From a virus (lineage: Duplodnaviria > Caudoviricetes): a DNA stretch of 42,644 nt. Location: IMG/VR virus record IMGVR_UViG_3300020045_009723, positions 1 to 42,644 of that record. One strand, given 5' to 3'. The position numbers and the translations under genes were made by a program. Positions 1,989 through 41,415 of the stretch are shown here, in pieces (position 1 is the stretch's first letter; each line of letters begins with the position of its first letter). Under the pieces are notes generated by a model. The model searched no databases, was not told the DNA's origin, and saw only the letters and a program-made list of their open reading frames with translations.

Positions 1989-2047
1989 AGGAATGTGGCA
2001 CCCAATGATGCTACTTAGTTCTATAGATTAGAGAGGTGGAAAACCAA

Positions 2048-2839
2048 ATGGCAGTTACATCACAAGAATTCAAAAGCATGCACGAATTCCTGAACTACCT
2101 TAATGAGGCACAAACAAACGACAGATTCTTAGGTTCGCGTTTGGCATCACGTGATACGGACAGAGAATTCTACAAAACGTCAAACTTTCAAGAAGCTGTT
2201 GATTTGGCAAAGAATGGTTGGAATGTGGTGGCGGCACAAATTGAAACTAAACTCAAACTAATGGCAAATCAAGTTGAAACAAAAACAACTACAAGATCGA
2301 GATACGATGTGGCAGGCTTTCAAGCTTCGGTACCGAGATACTTACAGGGCAATCCAATGAGCATGGTGAACCAATCTAAAGCGGTTCAAAAGCAGAAAGT
2401 AATTACTATCGTAAAACACATTGGTTATTTAGGTCACATAAAATCAAATGATATTATTGAGTATTCAACTAGGGCACTTCAGATAGTGAAAAAGGTTGAG
2501 GCACAAGGTTACAGAGTTAACTTAGATATTATTTCCCCAGTAGAAGATCGAAGAGGTAACACAATAATTTGTAGGGTGAGAATAAAAAACGCCTCTGAGA
2601 GATTAAACGTCGCCAAAGTCGCTTTCCCCTTAGTTCACCCGTCAATGCTTCGCAGATTGGTTTTTAGTTTTAGAGAAACACACCCACAAATTACACCAAC
2701 GACGTGGCAAATTACAGATATGGGAATTACAATCCAAAATGTAGATGTGGTGAAAAAACTTCTGAACCCGGGAGAATATTATCTCCACAATGTAATAAAT
2801 GATGTAGACGAAGCAATAAAACAAATGCAGTTGAAGTAG
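2048..2839 (+). CDS. vWA-like partner of the MoxR ATPase (DUF7192-like)
   Basis: YDVAG..VPRYLQGNP..M, G(Y)RVNL and HPSMLRR motifs; lies next to a MoxR AAA gene. Start moved to ATG 2048 from the SD position. Confidence 0.6.
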   Translation: MAVTSQEFKSMHEFLNYLNEAQTNDRFLGSRLASRDTDREFYKTSNFQEAVDLAKNGWNVVAAQIETKLKLMANQVETKTTTRSRYDVAGFQASVPRYLQGNPMSMVNQSKAVQKQKVITIVKHIGYLGHIKSNDIIEYSTRALQIVKKVEAQGYRVNLDIISPVEDRRGNTIICRVRIKNASERLNVAKVAFPLVHPSMLRRLVFSFRETHPQITPTTWQITDMGITIQNVDVVKKLLNPGEYYLHNVINDVDEAIKQMQLK

Positions 2840-2870
2840 AAAACGCAAATAAATTGAAAAACTTTTCAAA

Positions 2871-2893
2871 AGGGGGTATTCGCCCCCTGTTTT
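2871..2893 (+). terminator. Intrinsic terminator-like hairpin overlapping the next promoter
   Basis: AGGGGG-TATTCG-CCCCCT-GTTTT; TGaTATACT extended -10 follows at 2897-2905. Confidence 0.55.
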
Positions 2894-2966
2894 CTATGAT
2901 ATACTATAAATGTGGTGAAACACATGGCCACAAATTAGTTCTAAGATTAGAAAGGCGGAAACAAAC

Positions 2967-4037
2967 ATGGCATCGACAATGATTAGTTCAATCAAAGCAG
3001 CGAAGATTCAGCACATCGAGAAAAGCTGGAAATACGAGGGACACTGCTTCGTACGTACTATTGATGGTAAAGATCACAAACGCAAAATTCACACTTCCAA
3101 GAAACTAACTGGTAAAGCTTTCATTAACTTAGACACTGACGTTTTCAGCTTCACCTGGAACGGCAACAGAGCTGAAGGTATTGAATGGATCGGTAACTAC
3201 AAAACTGGCGAATACAAAACCTTTGAAGAAGTCGTCAAGGCAGCTGAGCTAATCGCTTCCCCGAAAATGGTATTCATTGAAGATACGGACGACGTGGTTA
3301 AACACGAAAAATACATACAAATCAAAACCTGCATTGAAAATGACATTCCGGTATATCTGGTTGGCCCTGCTGGTTCTGGTAAAAACCACACACTTGAACA
3401 GATCGCAGACGAACTCGGACTTGACTTTCACTTCACAAATTCAGTGCAGCAAGAATTCAAACTGACCGGATTCATTGATGCTGGTGGAAAATTCCACGAA
3501 ACAGAATTCTACAAAGCTTTCACAAACGGTGGTTTATTCTTCCTCGACGAGATGGACGCTTCGATACCTGAAGTTCTGGTTCTACTGAACGCGGCGATCG
3601 CCAATAGGTACTTTGAATTTCCGAACGGCAAGGTTGATGCACACGAAGATTTTAGAGTGGTATCTGCAGGAAATACGGTTGGTTCAGGTGCTGACGAACA
3701 GTACACTGGCAGATTGGTGCTAGACCAAGCTACACTTGATAGATTCAGCATTATAGAATTCGACTACAGCGAGAAAATTGAGATTCACCTTGCTAAGGGA
3801 AATGCTGATCTGGTATCCTTCATACGGGACCTGAGATCACAGGCTAAAGAAAAAGGAGTTAGAGCTACATTCTCCTACAGATGCATTTCAATGGTGGTCA
3901 AACTTGAAGGCAAACTAGAATTGACTGACGTAATGCTGATGGCAGTGGTTAAAGGAATGGACAAAGATACAGTAAGAACCTTCCAATCAAACGGTTATAC
4001 CAGATACCACCAAGCACTAAAAGCGGTTCAGGCATAA
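2967..4037 (+). CDS. MoxR/CbbQ-type AAA+ ATPase
   Basis: Walker A GPAGSGKN, Walker B FFLDEMD, HEDFRVVSAGN, LDQATLDRF. Confidence 0.9.
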   Translation: MASTMISSIKAAKIQHIEKSWKYEGHCFVRTIDGKDHKRKIHTSKKLTGKAFINLDTDVFSFTWNGNRAEGIEWIGNYKTGEYKTFEEVVKAAELIASPKMVFIEDTDDVVKHEKYIQIKTCIENDIPVYLVGPAGSGKNHTLEQIADELGLDFHFTNSVQQEFKLTGFIDAGGKFHETEFYKAFTNGGLFFLDEMDASIPEVLVLLNAAIANRYFEFPNGKVDAHEDFRVVSAGNTVGSGADEQYTGRLVLDQATLDRFSIIEFDYSEKIEIHLAKGNADLVSFIRDLRSQAKEKGVRATFSYRCISMVVKLEGKLELTDVMLMAVVKGMDKDTVRTFQSNGYTRYHQALKAVQA

Positions 4038-12170: not shown

Positions 12171-12491
12171 ATGGTGACAAACTTTAAATTGATCATGGGT
12201 GATGAAAAACTGCCTATTGGTTACGAATTAACTGGTCATGCATCAAATAGTATTGTATGTGCAGCAATCTCTGCTCTCGCTCATTCAACAGCAGAAGGGC
12301 TAGAGAAAGTACTTAATTTGGACGTTGTAGTTGAAACTGATGAGCAACGTGGTTATATGAAATGTACTTATACTATTGGTTATAGTGATTGTAAATATTA
12401 TGGGGCATTCGCTTTGATCAAAACGTTGGTTAACGCTTTGCAGTCCGTTGAACGTGATTACCCAGGAAACGTTATATTTATTATGTCGTGA
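12171..12491 (+). CDS. prp: Prp-family (DUF464) ribosomal-processing-like cysteine protease
   Basis: GYELTGHA...IVCAAISAL..T..GL His-Cys dyad motif; C-terminal L..V...YP.NV; 106 aa. Confidence 0.85.
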   Translation: MVTNFKLIMGDEKLPIGYELTGHASNSIVCAAISALAHSTAEGLEKVLNLDVVVETDEQRGYMKCTYTIGYSDCKYYGAFALIKTLVNALQSVERDYPGNVIFIMS

Positions 12492-14039: not shown

Positions 14040-16109
14040 ATGACGGTATCAACTGAAATAAATAGTTTACTAGCAGATCAGTTGTTTGCCATTTATTCGC
14101 ACGCTGAAATGTTAATGATGGATAAGGTAGCAAAAAGGGTAGCTCGAGGGCTGACAGGGCCGACGTGGTCAACCGAGAAACTAGCAGATGTTCTATCATC
14201 TAAGGCAGAGTTAAAGGCTGTTGTAGATGACCTGACGACGATAGCATCAAAGAGAGTAGATTCAGCAATTGTTGATTCATATTTGAAAGGTGTTAATTCA
14301 GCAGAGAAAGATCATGGCCTACCAAGAACAGTTTTAAGGAACATGGAAGTTCCTGGTCATTTGCAGCGTTTGGTCCTAGAGTCCAATAAAATGATCGTTG
14401 GAACCAGTGCTCAAATACTTAGGGATGTAGACGATGTGTTCAGAAAAACCCAAGCAGAGGCAGCATCGTTAGTTCTTGCTGGAGTGGATACAAGAAAGCA
14501 GGCTGCTCAACGGATGCTGAACAAATTTGCTGATCGCGGAGTAACAAGCTTTGTTGATAAGGCAGGCAGAAACTGGGAAATGGCGTCATATACTGAAATG
14601 GCAACCAGAACGGTCACTGCTCATGCTGCTCTGCAGGGCCACATTGACCGTCAGGCAGTGATCGGAAATGATCTTGTAATAGTATCAGCCAATGGTACAT
14701 CATGTCCTATATGTCAGCCGTGGGCAGGTAAAGTTCTTAGTATAACAGGTAATACGGCTGGTTACTCGACAGTTCAGAATGCAAGAGATTCAGGGTTATT
14801 TCATCCAAATTGTAGGCACATCGTTACGGCATTTTTCCCTGATGTCCCTGATGCCCCTACACCTGATACATCAGCTTATAATCCTGAGTCCTATGAGATG
14901 ACACAGAAGCAAAGACACAACGAACGTCAGATACGTAGGTGGAAACGGCGAGAGGTTGTAGCAATGTCTCCACAAGAACATCAGTTTGCTTCAGGCAAGG
15001 TTAGAGAATGGCAGGCAGCACAACGTCAACTGCTTAAAGAATACGAAGATAAGTTTGGTATAGAGTTAAAACGAAAGTATGATCGAGAAAGTATAGTTAA
15101 TAGAACAGGAAAAGCTGGATCAGACGGCTCGCCTAATTGGACAGAATTTAAACCACGTTATATTGCTGGAGCTAAAGCAAAAGCAGTTAAGAAAACTGCA
15201 GTTAAAAAAGAAGTTGCTAAGGCGAAAGAAATACTTGGCTTTAAACCCGAGATCACAAAACCAACACCTATTCCAGAAGGTGCTAAGCAAGTCAATACTA
15301 AAAACATACCTACGTTGAAGCATTTAAAGGATAGGCAAAAGAAGTATGTTGAACAATCATTTTCCGCAACAGCCGACAACGACCCAAAATATGATGTAAT
15401 TAAAAACAAATTAGAGTTATTGGCAGAAAATAGTGTAACACGCACCAGGGTATCGGAAGAAGTACTAAATTATATTGTTGCCGATGGAAGGTTTAAGAAC
15501 CAGTTTGAGGTTGGTAGATCACGTGGAACATACGACCCGTCTTTTAGACGTCAAGCAAGCAATAAGTTGTTTGGTACAAAGAGAGGAACAGCCAAGGAAG
15601 ATTATGAATTTTATGGGTATCTTGGCCATAAAGATATAGTAGAGGATATAGTAGCGGCACATCCAAGGCAATATGGTGATGTTGTTGTTACTTTAAAACC
15701 GCATGTTCGTGAAAGAACAACGTTTACTATTGATGATAGTTTAGGTCCAGCAACAAACGAAAGAATGGTAGCTTCTTTGTTAGAAGATGTGAACCCTGTA
15801 AATTTAAGACTGAGAGATGCCGAAGAATTATACAACATGCCCGTAGAAAAGATGAACCCAGTTGACGTCGTAGACACTTGTTACATCAGGTATGTTGAAG
15901 CGCAGTATCATGGCGGTTTAACTATTGCCGACATTGAAAGCGTACACATAGAATCAATTAGTTTGGAAGATATTAGGCCAAGCACTATGGAAAAAATGAA
16001 AGAACACGGAATATCAGTTCACTCCTACAATGTTGGTGACGCTAAATGGTATGGCACGGATAAAGAGAAGCGAAGAAAACAGATAAAAGTAACTCAGTTA
16101 GATTTATAG
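14040..16109 (+). CDS. Minor capsid (MuF/gp7-like) protein with a C-terminal DUF3626-like putative toxin domain
   Basis: N-terminal DKAGRNW..Y.EMATRT, CPICQPWAGKV, GLFHPNCRH, QKQRHNERQIRRWKR. C-terminal FKNQFE..S.G, YGYL, QYGD, RTTFT.DDSL, YVEAQYHG. Confidence 0.85.
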   Translation: MTVSTEINSLLADQLFAIYSHAEMLMMDKVAKRVARGLTGPTWSTEKLADVLSSKAELKAVVDDLTTIASKRVDSAIVDSYLKGVNSAEKDHGLPRTVLRNMEVPGHLQRLVLESNKMIVGTSAQILRDVDDVFRKTQAEAASLVLAGVDTRKQAAQRMLNKFADRGVTSFVDKAGRNWEMASYTEMATRTVTAHAALQGHIDRQAVIGNDLVIVSANGTSCPICQPWAGKVLSITGNTAGYSTVQNARDSGLFHPNCRHIVTAFFPDVPDAPTPDTSAYNPESYEMTQKQRHNERQIRRWKRREVVAMSPQEHQFASGKVREWQAAQRQLLKEYEDKFGIELKRKYDRESIVNRTGKAGSDGSPNWTEFKPRYIAGAKAKAVKKTAVKKEVAKAKEILGFKPEITKPTPIPEGAKQVNTKNIPTLKHLKDRQKKYVEQSFSATADNDPKYDVIKNKLELLAENSVTRTRVSEEVLNYIVADGRFKNQFEVGRSRGTYDPSFRRQASNKLFGTKRGTAKEDYEFYGYLGHKDIVEDIVAAHPRQYGDVVVTLKPHVRERTTFTIDDSLGPATNERMVASLLEDVNPVNLRLRDAEELYNMPVEKMNPVDVVDTCYIRYVEAQYHGGLTIADIESVHIESISLEDIRPSTMEKMKEHGISVHSYNVGDAKWYGTDKEKRRKQIKVTQLDL

Positions 16110-33010: not shown

Positions 33011-33039
33011 TTTACAGATCACAAACCGTATGGTATAAT
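33011..33039 (+). promoter_or_regulatory. SigmaA-type promoter of the replication operon
   Basis: TTTACA-N17(ending TGG)-TATAAT. Confidence 0.85.
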
Positions 33040-34267: not shown

Positions 34268-35213
34268 GTTTAAACCAAATGGCAAGGACTTGGCAAAAAT
34301 CCTCCATTATTATGGTTTGCTCGAAGGTGACTCGGAATTCAAACTAGTTTGCCCGTTTCACGATGACATAAATGCCAGCATGAAAGTTGATATTGTATCA
34401 GGTTCATTTTATTGTTTTGGTTGTACAGTATCAGGCGATGCACTTACATTTGTAAAATTGGTAAACAAACGCCTTTCTGAGTTAGATGCGTGCAAACTGT
34501 ATTTTAAGATTCTACGAAGTAAAAAAGTTAAAAGATTGAAACTCAAAACTGTAACAAGGACTAAGCGACGCGAAATAGATTTGCATGCATTAACAATTGC
34601 AGAAGATTACTATTTCGGGTTAAAGGCAGTGGATTGGTCAGAAGATCAGAGCCCAGAAAAGCAGTACATGGTTCAACGTGGGTTTAACGTTAAATCATTA
34701 ACTATGTGCCAAGCTAAACTTAGTTACAATCCGCATTACCCATTGATCTTCCCAATGTTTGACATGGGGGAATTTAAAGGCTGGGTATGCAGGACCACCA
34801 TGAAATCAATAGAGAAGAAACGTAAGTACTTGTACAACGATGGCTTTAGTCGAAGCAATACTTTAGTTGGCAACTATAATTCAAAAGTAGTTGTTCTCGT
34901 AGAAGGTTACATGGATATGGTTAAAATGCAAATGTTCGGATTGAAAAACGTAGCAGCCATTCTTGGGTGGAAAATAACGCAGCAACAGATTGATAAACTT
35001 AAAAAGAATGGAGTAACTACAGTAATTTCTGCATTGGACAATGATCTTTGCGGAAACAAAGGAACTCAGTATTTGAAGAATTATTTCTCAGTAGTTAGGT
35101 TCCAGTTTCCAACTGGTGTTAAGGACCCTGGGGACATGAACCAAAAGTTATTTAATAGATCATTTAGGCGTACTAAGAAATTATATAGGGGGCACAAACA
35201 TGGGATTGGTTGA
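34263..35213 (+). CDS. dnaG: DNA primase (CHC2 zinc finger plus TOPRIM); start uncertain
   Basis: CPFHDD..ASM...FYCFGC; KYLY; VLVEGYMD; ALDNDLCG; KDPGD. Confidence 0.9.
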   Translation: MEFKPNGKDLAKILHYYGLLEGDSEFKLVCPFHDDINASMKVDIVSGSFYCFGCTVSGDALTFVKLVNKRLSELDACKLYFKILRSKKVKRLKLKTVTRTKRREIDLHALTIAEDYYFGLKAVDWSEDQSPEKQYMVQRGFNVKSLTMCQAKLSYNPHYPLIFPMFDMGEFKGWVCRTTMKSIEKKRKYLYNDGFSRSNTLVGNYNSKVVVLVEGYMDMVKMQMFGLKNVAAILGWKITQQQIDKLKKNGVTTVISALDNDLCGNKGTQYLKNYFSVVRFQFPTGVKDPGDMNQKLFNRSFRRTKKLYRGHKHGIG

Positions 35214-36009
35214 CGATATAAAAAATCAGGTGAAAAAAACAGGTACAAACAAGAAGAACATTTTGTACTTCAAATCAGGCACTAAGGTTCGCGTTCGCTT
35301 TTTGCAGGACATGGAGGAAGGCCTGGAGTTAAACTTCCATGACAGTTATGTGTTGGGTGTAAACCTTCCGTGCCAAGAGTTATACGAAAGAGAATGTAAA
35401 TACTGTGAGGACGAAGAACTTCGCCACAGAAAGCAGTACGTCTGGTCAGTATGGGACCATGAAGCTAAAGAAGTTAAACTACTGATGGGCCCCGTAAACA
35501 ACGCATCTCCAATACCTTCTCTTGTGGCCATGTACGACACCTACGGGACGTTGACCGATCGTGACTATGTAATAACCAAGAACGGTTCAGGCACGGGCCT
35601 TACATACAGTGTGGTGCCCATGGACAAAGCCAAGTTTAAGAATGAGAAAGCAAAACCATTCAGCGAGAAAAAGACAATGTCCATTATTGACAAAGCGTTT
35701 CCGGATGCAGACGACGATGCGGACGATGAACCCAAGAAAAAGAAAGGTTTTTCTAAGAAGCACGATGACGACGATGACGAACCGAAAAAGAAAAAGCAGT
35801 CCAAGAAACGTGATGACGACGACGATGATGATGACGACGAAACCGGAAATGACTACGAAGATATGTCCGCGAAAGAACTTTTCAAGGAATGTAAAAAGCG
35901 TGGCATAAAAGCTAAACCCGAGAAAAAGAAAAACTACTACGTTGAGCTGCTGGAAGAGGACGACGAAGAGTCTGGCGCCACTGACGATGACGATGAGTGG
36001 GACGAGTAA
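35200..36009 (+). CDS. Single-stranded DNA-binding protein (gp32-like, Zn-binding) with acidic/Lys tail
   Basis: VRVRFL, H...C...CKYC, DYVITKNGSG..TYSV; very acidic C-terminus DDDDEWDE. Confidence 0.75.
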   Translation: MGLVDDIKNQVKKTGTNKKNILYFKSGTKVRVRFLQDMEEGLELNFHDSYVLGVNLPCQELYERECKYCEDEELRHRKQYVWSVWDHEAKEVKLLMGPVNNASPIPSLVAMYDTYGTLTDRDYVITKNGSGTGLTYSVVPMDKAKFKNEKAKPFSEKKTMSIIDKAFPDADDDADDEPKKKKGFSKKHDDDDDEPKKKKQSKKRDDDDDDDDDETGNDYEDMSAKELFKECKKRGIKAKPEKKKNYYVELLEEDDEESGATDDDDEWDE

Positions 36010-36358
36010 TTCAAGTTTGCTAACGACTTTATTTGAGAAACAAGCCGAGTTCCAAAAGTTAGTTACTGGTGAAACGTTACCAAAGGACGATGTAAAATGG
36101 TTTTCGTATCACATGCAGGCAATAACGGAGGAGCTCGGTGAAGTTCTCAAGTCAGATAAGCGGTGGAAAACGCACAGAAATGTGCACTACGACCCTGAGA
36201 ATAAATTGGTAGAACTTGCGGATGTATTTATTTCGTGTATCAATATGGCCCTGTTTTCTGGTTTTGATGCACGTGTTCTTTACAACGCAATTGAAACTAA
36301 AATAGCAGAGAATATGGAAAAACTAGAAAAGGGGCAAACAAATGATAGTAGTAGTTGA
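35993..36358 (+). CDS. All-alpha dNTP pyrophosphatase (dimeric dUTPase/dCTPase, MazG superfamily)
   Basis: EKQAEFQ, AITEELGEV...RWKTH, ELADVF, K...N: the ExxE...ExxD metal motif. Confidence 0.85.
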   Translation: MSGTSNSSLLTTLFEKQAEFQKLVTGETLPKDDVKWFSYHMQAITEELGEVLKSDKRWKTHRNVHYDPENKLVELADVFISCINMALFSGFDARVLYNAIETKIAENMEKLEKGQTNDSSS

Positions 36359-37259
36359 AGGAATTGATAGGGTTGGAAAAACAACTCTTTGCAAAAGGTT
36401 AGAAGATAAAGGCTTTTGGTACTTCAAGGATATTTGGAACATGGTTCCGCTAGATAGTGAAGTATCGTGCTACGTAACTGGTAAGTTTGATTCAACTTTA
36501 AACATGCTTAAAATGCTGAATGAGAAAAACGTAAATGTTGTCATTGACAGGTTGCATTTGACGGAATTTGTTTATGGTTGTTGTGAACGTGGTGGCAGTA
36601 ATTTTAATATTTATCGCAAAGTTGATGAATTTTTAGCAGCATTAGATTGTATGTTGGTTTTAATGTCGCCAACGGACGTTAAAGAATCAAGCAGGCAGCA
36701 CGGTAGTTCATTAACTATGCACAACAGGTTATTTAATTTGTGTTTTGAAGAATCAAAAATTAAATTAAAGTATCGCACCATGTTTGACGGTATCAATTAC
36801 CTTGTTAGTAACATTACTGGTTGTTGGTATGATTTGTATTTTGCTTCGCCTTTTTTCAATCCAGAACAGATCGAGCGGGAAGAGTCGTTAATTGCATCGC
36901 TTCGAACAAGCGGCTTCAGAGTTTTTAGCCCAAAAGAAAGTATTTTACTAAAGCCAAACTCTTCCGATCATGACCAAGAAAAAGCATTCAATGAAAACGT
37001 TAAAGCGATAAAAAAGGCAAGTGCCGTGTTTGCCGTTACGGATGGCAAGGACGTTGGTACAATTTGGGAAGCAGGTTATGCATACGGTGTTGGTAAGCCG
37101 ATCATATACTTTGCAGAAACTCTTGGTAATAATAACTTTAACGTAATGCTTGCAAAATCCGGAAATGACGTATTTCTTTCACGAAGTCAAATTACAAAAC
37201 ACGCAATTGAACGTGCAATTGCAGGTGGCAAAATGAACTACAAAGGGTGTATCGAATGA
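36342..37259 (+). CDS. Fusion of a thymidylate-kinase-like dNMP kinase and a nucleoside 2-deoxyribosyltransferase/nucleotide N-glycosidase domain
   Basis: N-terminal VVEGIDRVGKTT, IDRLHLTEFVYG. C-terminal LYFASPFF, VFSPKE, DGKDVGTIWEAGYAYGVGKP, NVML. Confidence 0.88.
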   Translation: MIVVVEGIDRVGKTTLCKRLEDKGFWYFKDIWNMVPLDSEVSCYVTGKFDSTLNMLKMLNEKNVNVVIDRLHLTEFVYGCCERGGSNFNIYRKVDEFLAALDCMLVLMSPTDVKESSRQHGSSLTMHNRLFNLCFEESKIKLKYRTMFDGINYLVSNITGCWYDLYFASPFFNPEQIEREESLIASLRTSGFRVFSPKESILLKPNSSDHDQEKAFNENVKAIKKASAVFAVTDGKDVGTIWEAGYAYGVGKPIIYFAETLGNNNFNVMLAKSGNDVFLSRSQITKHAIERAIAGGKMNYKGCIE

Positions 37260-37795
37260 GCAGAATAGACGGTGATTTTTTAAAAAGAACGTACAGGCTT
37301 AATCACATGGTTAGGTATAACCCTTGGCCCAAACTTAACCCAGAAAACGTTGCAGCCCATTCCTTTTACACATCCCTATTTGCCCTTGTATTATGTGAAG
37401 AGTTTGGTGTTTCTCCCGGAATTAAGCTAGAGGCGTTGGAGATAGCTTTGGTTCATGACACGCCAGAGTCAGTAACCAATGACATAACACACGATGCCAA
37501 GGTCATGATGCCTGAACTAGATTCGTTGCTTGCCAAGTTCGAACGGCAATTTATTGATGACCATTTCCCGCAGCAGTACAGTTCATTATTTATGCAATGT
37601 TCCGTCGGTTCACACATTGCTCGGTTAATAGTAAAACTTGCAGATGTTCTTTCTACAGTTCAGTACTGCAACAATGAAATTTCGCTTGGCAATTCCGGAA
37701 TGAATGAAATTCTAGGGCAGGCGAGACAAAGAGTTGCTGACGTTAAAAACGAGTTAGAGGAGGCAGGAATACGATGCCAGAAAATAGTAATTTAA
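37256..37795 (+). CDS. HD-domain 5'-deoxynucleotidase (YfbR/DatZ-like)
   Basis: VRY...ENVAAHS, ALVHDTPES.TNDI, VKLAD, E..LGN. Confidence 0.88.
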   Translation: MSRIDGDFLKRTYRLNHMVRYNPWPKLNPENVAAHSFYTSLFALVLCEEFGVSPGIKLEALEIALVHDTPESVTNDITHDAKVMMPELDSLLAKFERQFIDDHFPQQYSSLFMQCSVGSHIARLIVKLADVLSTVQYCNNEISLGNSGMNEILGQARQRVADVKNELEEAGIRCQKIVI

Positions 37796-38748
37796 CTCCA
37801 GTAAAACACCCAATGGTGATCAGATTTGGTGAAAAACCAACAACAGAGTTTAAGAACAATTTGGATTCAATTAAAGTTTCGTTATTGAATGCACCGTCCA
37901 TGGAACAGCTTAGAAATTACTTGGTTCCATTTCTTGAAGCTACTTGGGCAGAGGGCCCACTTGATTCCGCTTCGCTTCCCCTTATCGAGAAAGATCATAT
38001 TTTACGCGAATGTCTGTTTGGCCGTGCATTACCAACTGCTCTTGAAACTGTAAGGTTAACATTTCTCATTGAAGGAATAAGTTTGCAGGAAGTTACACAC
38101 ATTCTGCGGTACAGAACGGCCAGTTTCTCAGCTGATTGTTCAGCAGATAAGTGGTGGTCTCATAAAGCCGCATTGGTTCCTAGTGCTATTCAAAACAGTA
38201 GCGAAATTTACCAGCGGTATCAGAAGTTAATGGAAGATGCAAAGCAGCTGTATTGCGATATTATCGACACAAAAGAAATCACAATTATGGATGCACGGTA
38301 CGTTTTGCCTAGGTGCTTTGAAACATACTACTTTATGAGTATGAGCATTAAGGACGCAATTCATTTTATCAACCAACGCATTGATCGAATGATTCAGCCG
38401 GAAACAGACAACGTTATGGCGTACCAAATGTACATGCAAATGTTGGCACGCTTTCCTATTTTATACGATGTGATCAACATTGACGAGCCAAGCTGGTTTT
38501 ACATCAAAACAGCACGAACTGGTAAATCCACAAGTTTGTACGTACCCGACGAAACAAATGACAAGTGGGAGTGGAACAGAGAGGACTTTATTTACGGTCG
38601 GCAACGGAGTGAATTGCGTGGAACGGATGTTGGTGCACGTTGTATATTTGATGAATATTTAGAAGTATTTAAAGAAGATATTGAGTTCCTTAACAGGAGT
38701 AGTAGGCGTTCGCTAGTAAAAGAATATTCGGAACAATTACAAAAATAA
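37774..38748 (+). CDS. ThyX-fold flavoprotein with divergent active site
   Basis: ALE...TFLIEGIS...HILRYRTASFS, DARYVLP...T, FINQR....QPE. ThyX scaffold, but the canonical motifs are altered, so no symbol is given. Confidence 0.8.
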   Translation: MPENSNLTPVKHPMVIRFGEKPTTEFKNNLDSIKVSLLNAPSMEQLRNYLVPFLEATWAEGPLDSASLPLIEKDHILRECLFGRALPTALETVRLTFLIEGISLQEVTHILRYRTASFSADCSADKWWSHKAALVPSAIQNSSEIYQRYQKLMEDAKQLYCDIIDTKEITIMDARYVLPRCFETYYFMSMSIKDAIHFINQRIDRMIQPETDNVMAYQMYMQMLARFPILYDVINIDEPSWFYIKTARTGKSTSLYVPDETNDKWEWNREDFIYGRQRSELRGTDVGARCIFDEYLEVFKEDIEFLNRSSRRSLVKEYSEQLQK

Positions 38749-41415
38749 ATGGATTTTCGCAATTACCTTTTTGATCTACATAGGCATGATGAATTTAGTA
38801 CGTTTGATGGTTTTGGAAAGGCAAGGGAGGCTGCTCGAAGGGCAAAAGAACTCGGGTACCCTGCGCTTGGCCTTTCCAATCATGGTAACGTTAGTGGCTT
38901 AGTTAAGCATTACGAGGCTTGCAAAAACGAAGGTATCATTCCGGTAATGGGAATGGAGGCGTACTTTCAGCCAAGTTTCGATAAAGACAAAAACACGTAC
39001 CATTTGTGTTTATTCGCAAAGAATCGCCAAGGCTGGACTTCTTTGATGAACTTAACAAATGTATCTGCAAAGGAAACGTTTTACAAAAAGCCAATAGTTA
39101 CATTTGAAAACTTAGAACAATTCAGCGAAGGGTTAATTTGCACTTCAGCTTGCGTTGCAGGCTTAATTCCAAAGTTAATCAAAAAAGGTAACTTTGATTC
39201 AGCAATTAAAATTACCAAAAAGTTCAAGCGAATATTCGGTGATGACTTTTACTTGGAAGTTCAGCCATTTAAGATCAACGAAAAACATAATGGAGTAGAC
39301 TTACAAACGTACACGAATGCTAAAATAATACAACTTGCAAGCAAGCTGAACATTGAATTGGTAATGACTTCTGATTCACATTTTGTTTCCCCTGATGATT
39401 ACGACACGTACCTAATGATGCATAAAATGTTAGGCACGAGTTACGGAGAACATTACGAACACAGGTATATGCATTCTCAGAAACGATTTGCAAAAGCATT
39501 CATGGATATGCACGACAACAAACAATTGCTAAAGTCAATTTGTTTATCAATGAAAGGCCTCGTTGAGAAGATCGAACACGAAACTATGCTGGACTTTGAA
39601 CTTGAAGTACCCGCTTACGGTGACACGCCAGAGGAGAGCTACCAAACACTTAAATCTGGATGTATCAGAACGTTAAAGCGGGAAGGCAAATGGACAGGCG
39701 AATACAAAGATCGCTTAAAGTACGAATTGCCAGTAATTAAACACCATGGCTTTCAAGATTACTTTTTATTGGTGCAAGATTATGTTCAGTACTGCAGAGA
39801 TAATGACATCGCCGTTGGTCCTGGTCGTGGTTCAGCTGGCAACAGTTTGGTAACGTATGGCCTAGGCATCACAGATGTTGACCCAATCTTCTTTCACAAT
39901 GACTTTGATAGGTTCCTAAGGATGGATAAAAAGAAGTCGCCAGACATTGACCTAGACTTTTGTACCAATAGACGGTATGAGGTGATCGAGTACATCCTTG
40001 ACAAATACCCAGATCAGTCGGCACAGATAACATCGTACGGAAACTATAAAGCTAAGTATTTGGTTGGTGATTTGGCAAAGCAGTATGATATGCCAGAAGA
40101 AGAAGTGGCGAGGCTGAAAAAGCTCCTTTCTGATTATGAGGTTCCTGGTAGTTTGTATATCAGCTTTGAAGAACTAATGGAAGATCATAACGTTAGACCA
40201 TACAATAAGCTGTACCCTGACATCATTAAACACTTTTGTAAACTGTTTGGCATGATACGATACTTCGGAAAGCACGCTGCTGCGGTTGCAATTACGAAAG
40301 GTAAATTGTGGGACAGAATTGGTATACAAAAGCAGGGTGGCCTATTTAAAACAGCATTCGACTTCAATGACGTTGAATATTTGAAAACATTGAAGCTGGA
40401 TATTTTAGGGTTAAAAACAGTTTCTATGGTGGATGAAATGGCCAAAATATCCGGAGAACACAGAAACATTTATGAAGTAATTGACGACCCGGAAATTTAT
40501 AGATTCTTTCGAGAAGGGCGATGCGACGGAATATTTCAATTCACTTCCCCGACACCAGTTCAAATGTGTGTAGATATTGGAGTTACTAACTTTGAGGACG
40601 TCGCCGCTGCTTCTTCGTTGAATAGGCCTGGACCGTTATCACTGAGAATGCATGAGCAGTATGCAGCGGCGAAAGATAACCCAGTAACTGACACGGCTTG
40701 GTATAAGCACGTTAAAGCGACACATGGTATTATCATCTACCAAGAGCAGATTATGCGAATATGCAGAGATTTGGCTGACGTCCCGTGGGACATAACGGAC
40801 AAGTTGGTTCGCTCTGATTCGCATCACATGAAGCTTGAAGATCGAGAGGCATGGAGCAAGGTGTTTCTTGACGGTGCAATAAAGAAAGGCATGACAAAGG
40901 ATGCAGCCCAACAACTTCTGGAAATGGTTTTAGGGTACGCATTTAACAGGGGCCACGCGATTGCTTACAACATGCTTTCTGTTCTTCAAATGTGGTACAA
41001 GGTGTATTTCCCCATTCAATTCTGGTCAATAGTTTTGAAGTACCAAGAGGACATTGGCAAGCGGGAGAAATTCAAAAGCAAAGCCGTTGCTGATGGCTGC
41101 GTAGTAATGTTACCCCACGTAAATTATACTGCTAGTGATTCAATCGGTAAGCTCCAAGGCGAACCAGTTATCCGTGAAGGACTAATGGTAATTAAGAACG
41201 TCGGAGACAAAGCGGCACTAACCATTGAAGAAGAACGCAAGAAGAACGGCACATACAAATCAATGGACGACTTTATGTCAAGGGTGCCAAAACGTTCAGT
41301 AAACTCCAGAGTAGTTAATGCGTTGATCGACAATGGTGCTTTAGAGTTTAACTTTGACACTTATATTAACAGAGTGACAAAGTACAATGCAACGTTGTAC
41401 ATGAAAGGAATGTAG
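38749..41415 (+). CDS. dnaE: DNA polymerase III alpha subunit (family C), compact 888 aa
   Basis: PHP domain DLHRH..STFDG, NHG, GMEAY, SDSH; GPGRGSAGNSL; PDIDLDF; KLDILGL; YQEQIM; YAFNRGHA; HhH KNVG. Confidence 0.95.
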   Translation: MDFRNYLFDLHRHDEFSTFDGFGKAREAARRAKELGYPALGLSNHGNVSGLVKHYEACKNEGIIPVMGMEAYFQPSFDKDKNTYHLCLFAKNRQGWTSLMNLTNVSAKETFYKKPIVTFENLEQFSEGLICTSACVAGLIPKLIKKGNFDSAIKITKKFKRIFGDDFYLEVQPFKINEKHNGVDLQTYTNAKIIQLASKLNIELVMTSDSHFVSPDDYDTYLMMHKMLGTSYGEHYEHRYMHSQKRFAKAFMDMHDNKQLLKSICLSMKGLVEKIEHETMLDFELEVPAYGDTPEESYQTLKSGCIRTLKREGKWTGEYKDRLKYELPVIKHHGFQDYFLLVQDYVQYCRDNDIAVGPGRGSAGNSLVTYGLGITDVDPIFFHNDFDRFLRMDKKKSPDIDLDFCTNRRYEVIEYILDKYPDQSAQITSYGNYKAKYLVGDLAKQYDMPEEEVARLKKLLSDYEVPGSLYISFEELMEDHNVRPYNKLYPDIIKHFCKLFGMIRYFGKHAAAVAITKGKLWDRIGIQKQGGLFKTAFDFNDVEYLKTLKLDILGLKTVSMVDEMAKISGEHRNIYEVIDDPEIYRFFREGRCDGIFQFTSPTPVQMCVDIGVTNFEDVAAASSLNRPGPLSLRMHEQYAAAKDNPVTDTAWYKHVKATHGIIIYQEQIMRICRDLADVPWDITDKLVRSDSHHMKLEDREAWSKVFLDGAIKKGMTKDAAQQLLEMVLGYAFNRGHAIAYNMLSVLQMWYKVYFPIQFWSIVLKYQEDIGKREKFKSKAVADGCVVMLPHVNYTASDSIGKLQGEPVIREGLMVIKNVGDKAALTIEEERKKNGTYKSMDDFMSRVPKRSVNSRVVNALIDNGALEFNFDTYINRVTKYNATLYMKGM

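Follow-up and report, generated by a model that had tools for sequence, protein, structure and literature searches.

Which base, if any, is replaced by the group of nucleotide-metabolism genes lying between the single-stranded DNA-binding protein (SSB)-like gene and recA in virus record IMGVR_UViG_3300020045_009723? The end of the whole stretch analysed, here called the window (42,644 nucleotides), repeats its start over 121 nt, which shows the genome to be circular and complete at 42,523 bp. The genome is that of a siphovirus; its portal and minor-capsid genes are SPP1-like, and a Pfam scan of its open reading frames (ORFs) gave no match to an integrase. A sequence-only reading had proposed that the phage makes and incorporates a non-canonical nucleotide, most likely a pyrimidine. 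Our results argue for a make-new/remove-old pyrimidine cassette rather than an ordinary dTTP supply and narrow the proposal to cytosine, which is probably substituted in the phage DNA through a ThyX-fold enzyme. Two parts of the proposal, a dedicated DnaE and an N-glycosidase destroying deoxynucleoside monophosphates (dNMPs), had to be given up.

The five plus-strand ORFs described earlier, overlapping or abutting, were confirmed between the SSB-like gene and RecA (41416). The features of the region are the following.

35200..36009, + strand: SSB-like gene (PHROG SSB, E 9e-7), left border of the exchangeable slot, seen in sister loci.
35993..36358, + strand: MazG/all-alpha deoxynucleoside triphosphate pyrophosphatase (PF08761, dUTPase_2, E 7e-6; motif EE..KxWK..E..D).
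36342..36821, + strand: thymidylate-kinase-like nucleoside monophosphate (NMP) kinase domain, residues ~1-160 of a kinase::NDT fusion (36342-37259), recognized by Pfam, PHROGs and profile.
36828..37259, + strand: nucleoside 2'-deoxyribosyltransferase (NDT) domain (PF05014, E 5e-18).
37247..37795, + strand: YfbR/DatZ-like HD 5'-deoxynucleotidase (PF12917, E 8e-18; phrog_7076, E 3e-21).
37774..38748, + strand: Cys-type ThyX-fold protein (Thy1; PF02511, E 2e-19) with a conserved C-terminal extension of ~90 aa.
38749..41415, + strand: DnaE-type polymerase of 888 aa (Pfam and PHROGs), right border of the slot.
33011..33039, + strand: predicted sigma-70-like promoter (11/12 match, extended -10) at the head of the replication operon to which the cassette belongs.

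The start of the MazG gene is uncertain (ATG 35993 or TTG 35942), and the promoter is a consensus match only, the total of such sites being no higher than in shuffled sequences. The window was scanned with Pfam on 49 plus-strand ORFs and with PHROGs on 18 ORFs, all of at least 90 aa. As had been noted earlier, these scans gave no family match for PurZ, ThyA, deaminase, 7-deazaguanine or ribonucleotide reductase genes; methyltransferase families gave none either.

The structure model of the ThyX-fold protein (pLDDT 84.8) had PolB as best Foldseek match (4p5b, E 3e-9) and resembled M. tuberculosis ThyX with a Z score of 15.3, and in an ESM Atlas search only Thy1 clusters were named. Residues were numbered by HMMER alignment to T. 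maritima ThyX and counted in the 59 locus proteins that were left of 83 after de-duplication at 90%. In the window protein, L86, C122, A124 and D125 occupy the sites of H53, Ser88, R90 and Tyr91, and R202 corresponds to Arg174. The canonical RHR-x7-S-x-R-Y loop (S88, R90, Y91) and the folate-stacking H53 are thus absent, and the protein was rightly described as non-canonical. The same changes were found throughout the homologues: S88 is replaced by Cys and E86 by Ala in 59/59, and R90, Y91 and H53 are also replaced in 59/59, mostly by Gly (55/59; Ala in the window), Asp (58/59) and Leu (58/59), respectively. R78, R147 and R174 are retained in 59/59 homologues, R80 and E58 in 58/59. The RYR change does not define the family, as 47/59 homologues keep His at the H79 position. 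In a wider set, Cys stood at the S88 site in 58 of 81 more distant representatives.

According to the available part of PMC8316439, R174 activates dUMP through N3 deprotonation while S88, R90 and Y91 aid methylene transfer, a step slowed in the S88A, R90A and Y91A mutants, by more than 100-fold in the last; H53 stacks on folate (PMC11940539, available part). The residue pattern, read with these published roles, indicates that the flavin and phosphate site is retained and that the loop handling the base and the one-carbon unit has been rebuilt. Canonical ThyX (T. maritima TM0449, M. tuberculosis ThyX) and the UMP/dUMP methylase PolB share the fold (Z 14-15, root-mean-square deviation ~3 Å over 200 residues) and the window protein has equivalents of their E58, R78, R80, R147, R174 and Q180. 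It differs from them by H53 to L, E/Q86 to A, S88 to C, R90 to G/A and Y91 to D, by the loss of one residue near Q75, by the added C-terminal extension and by an identity of only 15-20%, and on these features it would not be a canonical ThyX. E86 and Q75 presumably contact the base, a role which a literature check did not confirm.

The interval between the SSB gene and DnaE was surveyed in the best 80 of 187 DnaE matches and the best 80 of 203 primase matches; the counts are loci, some contigs having been fetched twice, and the truncated loci L173, L214, L225, L229 and L230 were excluded. This interval is an interchangeable slot. It was empty in 55 loci, without a synthase in 15, and occupied by a full ThyA in 52, by Cys-type ThyX together with a 150-200 aa ThyA-fold gene bearing the dCMP-type Asp (mini-ThyA) in 20 and without it in 14, by a Ser-type divergent ThyX in 18, by a third ThyX variant in 4 and by a U32-family gene in 2. 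The slot ThyA had Asp at the N177 site in 49/49 readable cases (52 loci), a residue used as the rule for dCMP specificity in the available part of 10.1101/2024.12.05.627091. Its partners include carbamoyltransferase, glycosyltransferase-like and radical-SAM genes, the carbamoyltransferase pairing being that of the known carbamoyl-5-hydroxymethylcytosine (carbamoyl-hmC) route (PMC8670742, available part). The primase relatives nearest to the window include L170, which carries a carbamoyltransferase and an Asp-type ThyA. The MazG family of the window, whose profile matches dimeric dUTPases and YpjD, was present in 52/52 Asp-ThyA cassettes, with L170, L148 and L236 among the top scores, and its kinase family in 52/52 of them versus 0/70 loci without a synthase. 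NDT and HD genes were found in 0/52 Asp-ThyA loci, 0/70 loci without a synthase, 17/18 Ser-type ThyX loci and, respectively, 24 and 25 of the 34 Cys-ThyX loci. The polymerase had been regarded as dedicated to the cassette; however, the same DnaE clade directly follows SSB, with no cassette, in 55 loci, including that of the cultured Clostridium phage CS266P2. Because of this, and because the different types of cassette are intermixed on both the primase tree and the DnaE tree, DnaE is the general core replicase of the clade.

The retention of restriction sites was measured as the observed/expected (O/E) ratio of palindromes (maximal-order Markov model) in loci no shorter than 11 kb, from which duplicates had been removed on the basis of 21-mers. 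The sample held 19/55 empty, 4/15 no-synthase and 34/52 Asp-ThyA loci and, of the Cys loci submitted, 12/17 with mini-ThyA and 6/9 with Cys-ThyX alone. In this order (empty, no-synthase, Asp-ThyA, Cys with mini-ThyA, Cys alone), the median O/E was 0.48, 0.51, 0.89, 0.90 and 0.87 for G/C-only 4/5-mers and 0.22, 0.39, 0.78, 0.92 and 0.81 for GC-rich 6-mers. The A/T-only 6-mers gave 0.84-0.93 in all groups without difference, a comparison of low power because all groups avoid these palindromes only slightly. When both G/C measures had to reach 0.7, a cut-off picked post hoc, sites were retained in 18/18 Cys, 22/34 Asp-ThyA and 4/23 no-synthase loci, and at least one G/C-only site was strongly avoided in 2/18, 8/34 and 18/23 of them, respectively. 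GATC, avoided in 9/18 Cys, 21/34 Asp-ThyA and 18/23 no-synthase loci, is uninformative because it is avoided with or without a cassette. As for GGCC, 76 sites were observed in the window for 82 expected, versus 0/49 in SPO1 and 0/35 in CP-51 (40 kb of each), which we take to be 5-hydroxymethyluracil (hmU) phages; the ratio was 3/28 in cultured CS266P2 (empty slot) and 31/34 in cultured AB434P3 (Asp-ThyA). The window is devoid of GATATC (0/8; EcoRV) and CATATG (0/4; NdeI). In the available part of PMC7653180 (Table S1, codes c, x and p being taken as cut, uncut and partial), EcoRV and NdeI cut 5hmC DNA, HaeIII and Sau96I do not, and the loss of these two sites from the window speaks for modified cytosine. 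The GC content at four-fold sites, used as a 5-methylcytosine (5mC) signature, did not separate the groups. A phage methyltransferase behind the site retention was also considered and rejected, as neither a family match nor a motif in a coding frame was found among the ORFs of at least 90 aa.

Several observations weigh against a cytosine substitution by the ThyX-fold enzyme. AGATCT (1/12.7) and TCTAGA (0/4.2) are also scarce in the window, and BglII (AGATCT) is blocked by C5 modification (PMC7653180, available part). The largest empty-slot group is a single clade and the trees offer only three independent Cys-versus-none pairs (mean 2.5 in the same direction, 0 opposite, sign-test p 0.5), and the p values of the rank tests therefore exaggerate the support. 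Four no-synthase loci retain their sites, 12/34 Asp-ThyA loci fall below the cut-off, and the hosts of the compared loci may differ in their restriction systems. Arg174, the activator of dUMP, is kept in all 59 homologues. The mini-ThyA carried by most relatives is absent from the window, the best hit of its profile in all six frames having an E value of only 0.26. Finally, the nucleotidase and NDT pair is absent from 52/52 Asp-ThyA cassettes and is typical of systems whose competitor and precursor are different compounds, such as DatZ and NDT in dZ phages. The dTMPase of hmU phages is another example of a nucleotidase in such a system.

The last point calls for a closer look at the two enzymes. 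The best solved relatives of the NDT domain, 6evs (E 9e-13, 5e-19 by profile), 7o62 and 1s2d, are nucleoside transferases. Y166, N219, D237, E243, N267 and M269 are invariant in 91/91 homologues, and a C-terminal Glu was also noted. The nucleoside-transferase signature (Tyr, catalytic Glu, Asp/Asn pair for the 5'-OH) is found as Y166, D237, which stands six residues before the catalytic E243, and N267. The column of the type II base-binding Gln, which we take to be Q46 in the Lactobacillus NDT numbering although a literature check did not confirm it, is variable (N, F, C, S, G). At the site equivalent to D237, MilB binds phosphate via Ser97 (PMC4081090, available part), and DmtZ is described without the Asp/Asn pair in the available part of PMC12884076. 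A dNMP/NMP hydrolase of the DNPH1, MilB or DmtZ type was thus rejected, since Asp, not Ser or a small residue, precedes the catalytic Glu by six positions, and with it the idea of an N-glycosidase destroying dNMPs. Given this transferase-type pair, nucleosides should be the substrates of the NDT domain, which would follow the HD enzyme in the pathway, as does the DatZ-linked NDT of dZ phages (10.1101/2025.10.22.683976, available part). The HD protein itself matched DatZ (6zpa) more weakly than generic HD proteins, and a Tyr stands at the W20 position.

From the observed gene content, residue changes, slot sharing and site retention, we infer the following catalytic steps. The four genes between SSB and DnaE would act before replication as a cytosine-substitution cassette: MazG, a putative dCTPase/dUTPase, would cleave dCTP to dCMP, and the Cys-type ThyX would modify dCMP at C5. 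The dUMP-type activation by Arg174 cannot work on cytosine because cytosine has no N3 proton; instead, Asp125 may protonate N3, as in the ThyA-fold dCMP hydroxymethylases, while Cys122 would add to C6 and FAD, whose site is retained, would serve as carrier. For this chemistry there is a precedent in TrmFO, the FAD/folate tRNA m5U54 methyltransferase, in which a Cys nucleophile and a flavin-carried methylene act at the pyrimidine C5, in a different fold and on uracil in RNA. The product would be phosphorylated by the kinase, a putative modified-dCMP kinase, and by a host NDP kinase, and incorporated by the phage DnaE, allowing the DNA to escape Type II restriction. The weakest step is the role of HD and NDT, tentatively the clearing of dUMP or modified dUMP: HD may remove the phosphate, and NDT may strip the base and reuse the deoxyribose. 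This clean-up is proposed because the Arg174-bearing ThyX site would still accept dUMP or modified dUMP, which Asp-ThyA rejects.

If this route is followed, 5-hydroxymethyl-dCMP would be the foremost candidate product, though at somewhat less than even chance, 5-methyl-dCMP would come next at slightly lower probability, and 5-hydroxy-dCMP would be unlikely. The glycosyltransferase-type neighbours in Geobacillus phage GR1 and in L075-L079 favour a hydroxyl-bearing product, and the native output of ThyX together with the MBD4-like glycosylases beside 20 aquatic loci fit 5mC or 5hmC. The O2-dependent hydroxylation by FMN-bound ThyA homologues reported in PMC13326640, whose available part makes no mention of ThyX, fits poorly with an anaerobic host; the relatives suggest a host of Clostridia type.

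The same genes may be explained otherwise. The real cytosine modifier may be the Asp-type mini-ThyA; Cys-ThyX would then assist it as flavin reductase, one-carbon donor or dTMP back-up, and the cassette of the window would be a reduced one giving partial or no modification. Indeed, the mini-ThyA profile matches T4 dCMP hydroxymethylase (E 3e-9), the gene directly follows ThyX in most gut relatives, in GR1 and in plasmid pBS32, it is kinase-fused in aquatic phages, and a nitroreductase gene precedes ThyX in GR1. However, five genomes besides the window, with a completeness of at least 99% in four, gave no mini-ThyA match, in a search whose positive control was partly circular (4/5 positives in the alignment); these six genomes are spread over four positions of the DnaE tree, still have MazG and kinase, and 6/6 retain their sites, which leaves the helper role unlikely. 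Thymine rather than cytosine could be substituted, ThyX making a 5-substituted dUMP such as hmdUMP and MazG, HD and NDT destroying dTTP, dTMP and thymidine, as in SPO1. The retention of Arg174 in 59/59 and the resemblance of MazG to dimeric dUTPases are in line with this, as are the genes near ThyX: a nucleotidase in 77/85 loci, often of NT5C type, dCMP deaminase in 12 loci, thymidine kinase in 17 and trimeric dUTPase in 4. We nevertheless consider it improbable: in the available part of PMC7653180, hmU DNA resists only ~8% of the Type II enzymes, versus 82-94% for C-modified DNA, SPO1 and CP-51 purge the GGCC sites that the window retains, and the MazG and kinase families are those of the dCMP-type ThyA cassettes.

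An ordinary dTTP supply with nucleoside salvage would comprise a divergent but normal thymidylate synthase, a dUTPase, a dTMP kinase, a nucleotidase and a transferase, the site retention reflecting the host. It would agree with the ThyX fold, the thymidylate-kinase-like kinase, the likeness of NDT to a salvage transferase and the lack of significance of the tree-corrected site test. Against it, S88, R90 and Y91, whose alanine mutants slow methylene transfer (PMC8316439, available part), are all changed, and what otherwise fills the slot is modification or methyltransferase genes. Moreover, Cys-ThyX is accompanied by a second, canonical ThyX in G005 and by an Asn-type ThyA in L013, where a dTMP supply by Cys-ThyX would be redundant and is hence unlikely. 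This makes the dTTP supply quite improbable. Lowest of all is the probability of a guanine substitution, in which HD and a purine-type NDT would remove dG and a G analogue would protect the G/C sites. G/C-only sites cannot separate C from G, and NDT lacks the type II Gln and, like DmtZ, carries Asn in the acid position; yet no 7-deazaguanine or PurZ match was found in the Pfam and PHROGs scans of the window, pyrimidines are the substrates of the ThyX fold and of the kinase family, and the sister slots hold no recognisable purine pathway.

The proposed cytosine route can be set beside known systems. The T4 hmC route (gp56 dCTPase, gp42 dCMP hydroxymethylase, gp1 kinase) and the ThyA-fold routes to 5mdCMP (Xp12), 5hodCMP (RB69 gp48, DLP3 gp80) and carbamoyl-hmC share with the window the predicted order pyrophosphatase, C5 synthase, kinase and phage polymerase, and sister phages have ThyA cassettes of this kind, with MazG and kinase of the window's families, in the corresponding slot. 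The window likewise retains C-containing Type II sites, without significance after tree correction. Unlike these routes, its synthase has the unrelated ThyX fold, an HD (elsewhere HAD) nucleotidase and NDT are added, the polymerase is a DnaE, and there is no glycosyltransferase. No ThyA-fold synthase with Asp at E. coli N177 was found in the window (no PF00303 match), so it does not belong to the T4/Xp12 type, although by analogy its cassette likely works in the same way. With the dZ phages (PurZ, MazZ, DatZ, NDT/DmtZ, DpoZ) it shares the MazG-type, HD and NDT trio beside a phage polymerase; it differs by the lack of a PurZ/PurZ0 match and of a family-A polymerase, by a site pattern suggesting G/C rather than A/T protection and, with respect to DmtZ, by the retained Asp/Asn pair. 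It differs from SPO1-type hmU systems in having no match to a ThyA-fold dUMP hydroxymethylase and no ongoing loss of G/C-only sites. On these features it appears to be neither dZ- nor SPO1-like.

The cassette recurs as a unit. Of 85 loci (84 surveyed and the window), 72 had a kinase and/or NDT gene in the vicinity of the ThyX homologue, 69 a MazG-type gene, 65 DnaE and 77 an HD or HAD nucleotidase, an association that is not due to chance. The relatives of Cys-ThyX comprise 637 clusters at 90% and 52 representatives at 50% clustering (E up to 1e-30). Among 185,579 species genomes only three contigs were found, all from metagenome-assembled genomes, and the clade is mostly phage-borne, being nearly confined to phages and phage-like plasmids. 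Carriers are 45-kb gut-type siphoviruses, aquatic phages with contigs up to 284 kb, the cultured phage GR1 (45% identity) and, among 41 matching plasmid records, B. subtilis pBS32 (47.6% identity), resident in the standard strain NCIB 3610. The nucleotide-metabolism genes of pBS32 are induced by SigN (PMC6751061, available part), and base substitution may bear on the unexplained pBS32-dependent cell death. In the aquatic homologues and in L017, L020 and L091, HD is replaced by an NT5C-type HAD nucleotidase.

The pre-replicative cytosine-modifying synthases found in our literature search are of the ThyA fold throughout, as far as the available parts of the sources go; PMC6514825 served as general background. 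No description of a ThyX-fold cytosine-modifying enzyme, and no paper on GR1, was found in this search, which largely left out subscription papers and is not proof of absence; within the literature covered, the enzyme route is likely not yet described, and the slot comparison and the restriction-site test are new elements. If the route is correct, a dCMP-acting ThyX-fold enzyme would represent a new flavin chemistry, several hundred phage proteins annotated as thymidylate synthase (the 637 clusters) would be relabelled, and one slot in phages of anaerobes would cycle through several unrelated anti-restriction solutions; the homologues in pBS32 and GR1 make the hypothesis testable. A wider version is possible but doubtful: the Cys/Asp loop would have converted the ThyX fold into a second independent cytosine-C5 family, used by gut siphoviruses, large aquatic phages, GR1 and the plasmid-prophage pBS32, with the linked nucleotidase and transferase taking part at the nucleoside or base level and a base that may be uncatalogued, such as a deoxyribosylated hydroxy(methyl)cytosine.

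Other contents of the slot were recorded during the survey. In L222 (2695-4762) and L245 (12872-14970), it contains MazG, kinase, a 329-aa gene without Pfam match that by eye looks glycosyltransferase-like, and a gene of the U32 peptidase family (PF01136), with no thymidylate-synthase fold; this is a candidate for an O2-independent cytosine hydroxylation route, and G/C sites are retained in L245. A second divergent ThyX (Ser88 retained, R90 to Met, Y91 to Pro) accompanies MazG, NDT, HD and kinase in L099 (4644-5555), L179-L202 and L209, usually with an S-adenosylmethionine (SAM)-dependent methyltransferase, and G/C sites are retained in 4/5 de-duplicated loci. The third ThyX variant (RHQ motif, R90 to Gln) occurs with MazG and kinase, without NDT or HD, in L096 (9243-9998) and L142. 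In the cultured gut Agathobaculum phage AB434P3 (L167, 24141-29307), MazG, kinase, HAD/kinase-like, cytidylyltransferase-like and glycosyltransferase-like genes stand with an Asp-type ThyA, annotated in the record as dUMP hydroxymethylase; an unreported sugar-modified cytosine is likely there. The radical-SAM, glycosyltransferase and Asp-ThyA cassettes of L178 (6318-8386), L197, L217, L223 and L233 suggest an unusual sugar on hmC. DNA methyltransferase-like genes can also occupy the slot, in L204 (12097-13479, C5 motif) and L124 (4457-5854, ParB-fused), and for this reason it looks like a general anti-restriction slot.

Among the Cys-ThyX carriers, L017 (6228-7681), L020, L091 and L174 have, in place of NDT and HD, the HAD nucleotidase of NT5C type and a protein of ~295 aa whose N-terminus is FAD-binding-like and for which Pfam gave no match. 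In the aquatic loci L022-L081, the region immediately upstream of the cassette encodes Fpg/Nei glycosylases (34 loci) and MBD4-like HhH-GPD glycosylases (20 loci), and L007 has a family-4-like uracil-DNA glycosylase within it. Elsewhere in the window, Pfam recognized a DUF7192 and AAA_5 ATPase pair (2036-4037), a Prp-family cysteine protease between terminase and portal (12171-12491) and a minor capsid protein with a DUF3626 region at its C-terminus (14040-16109).

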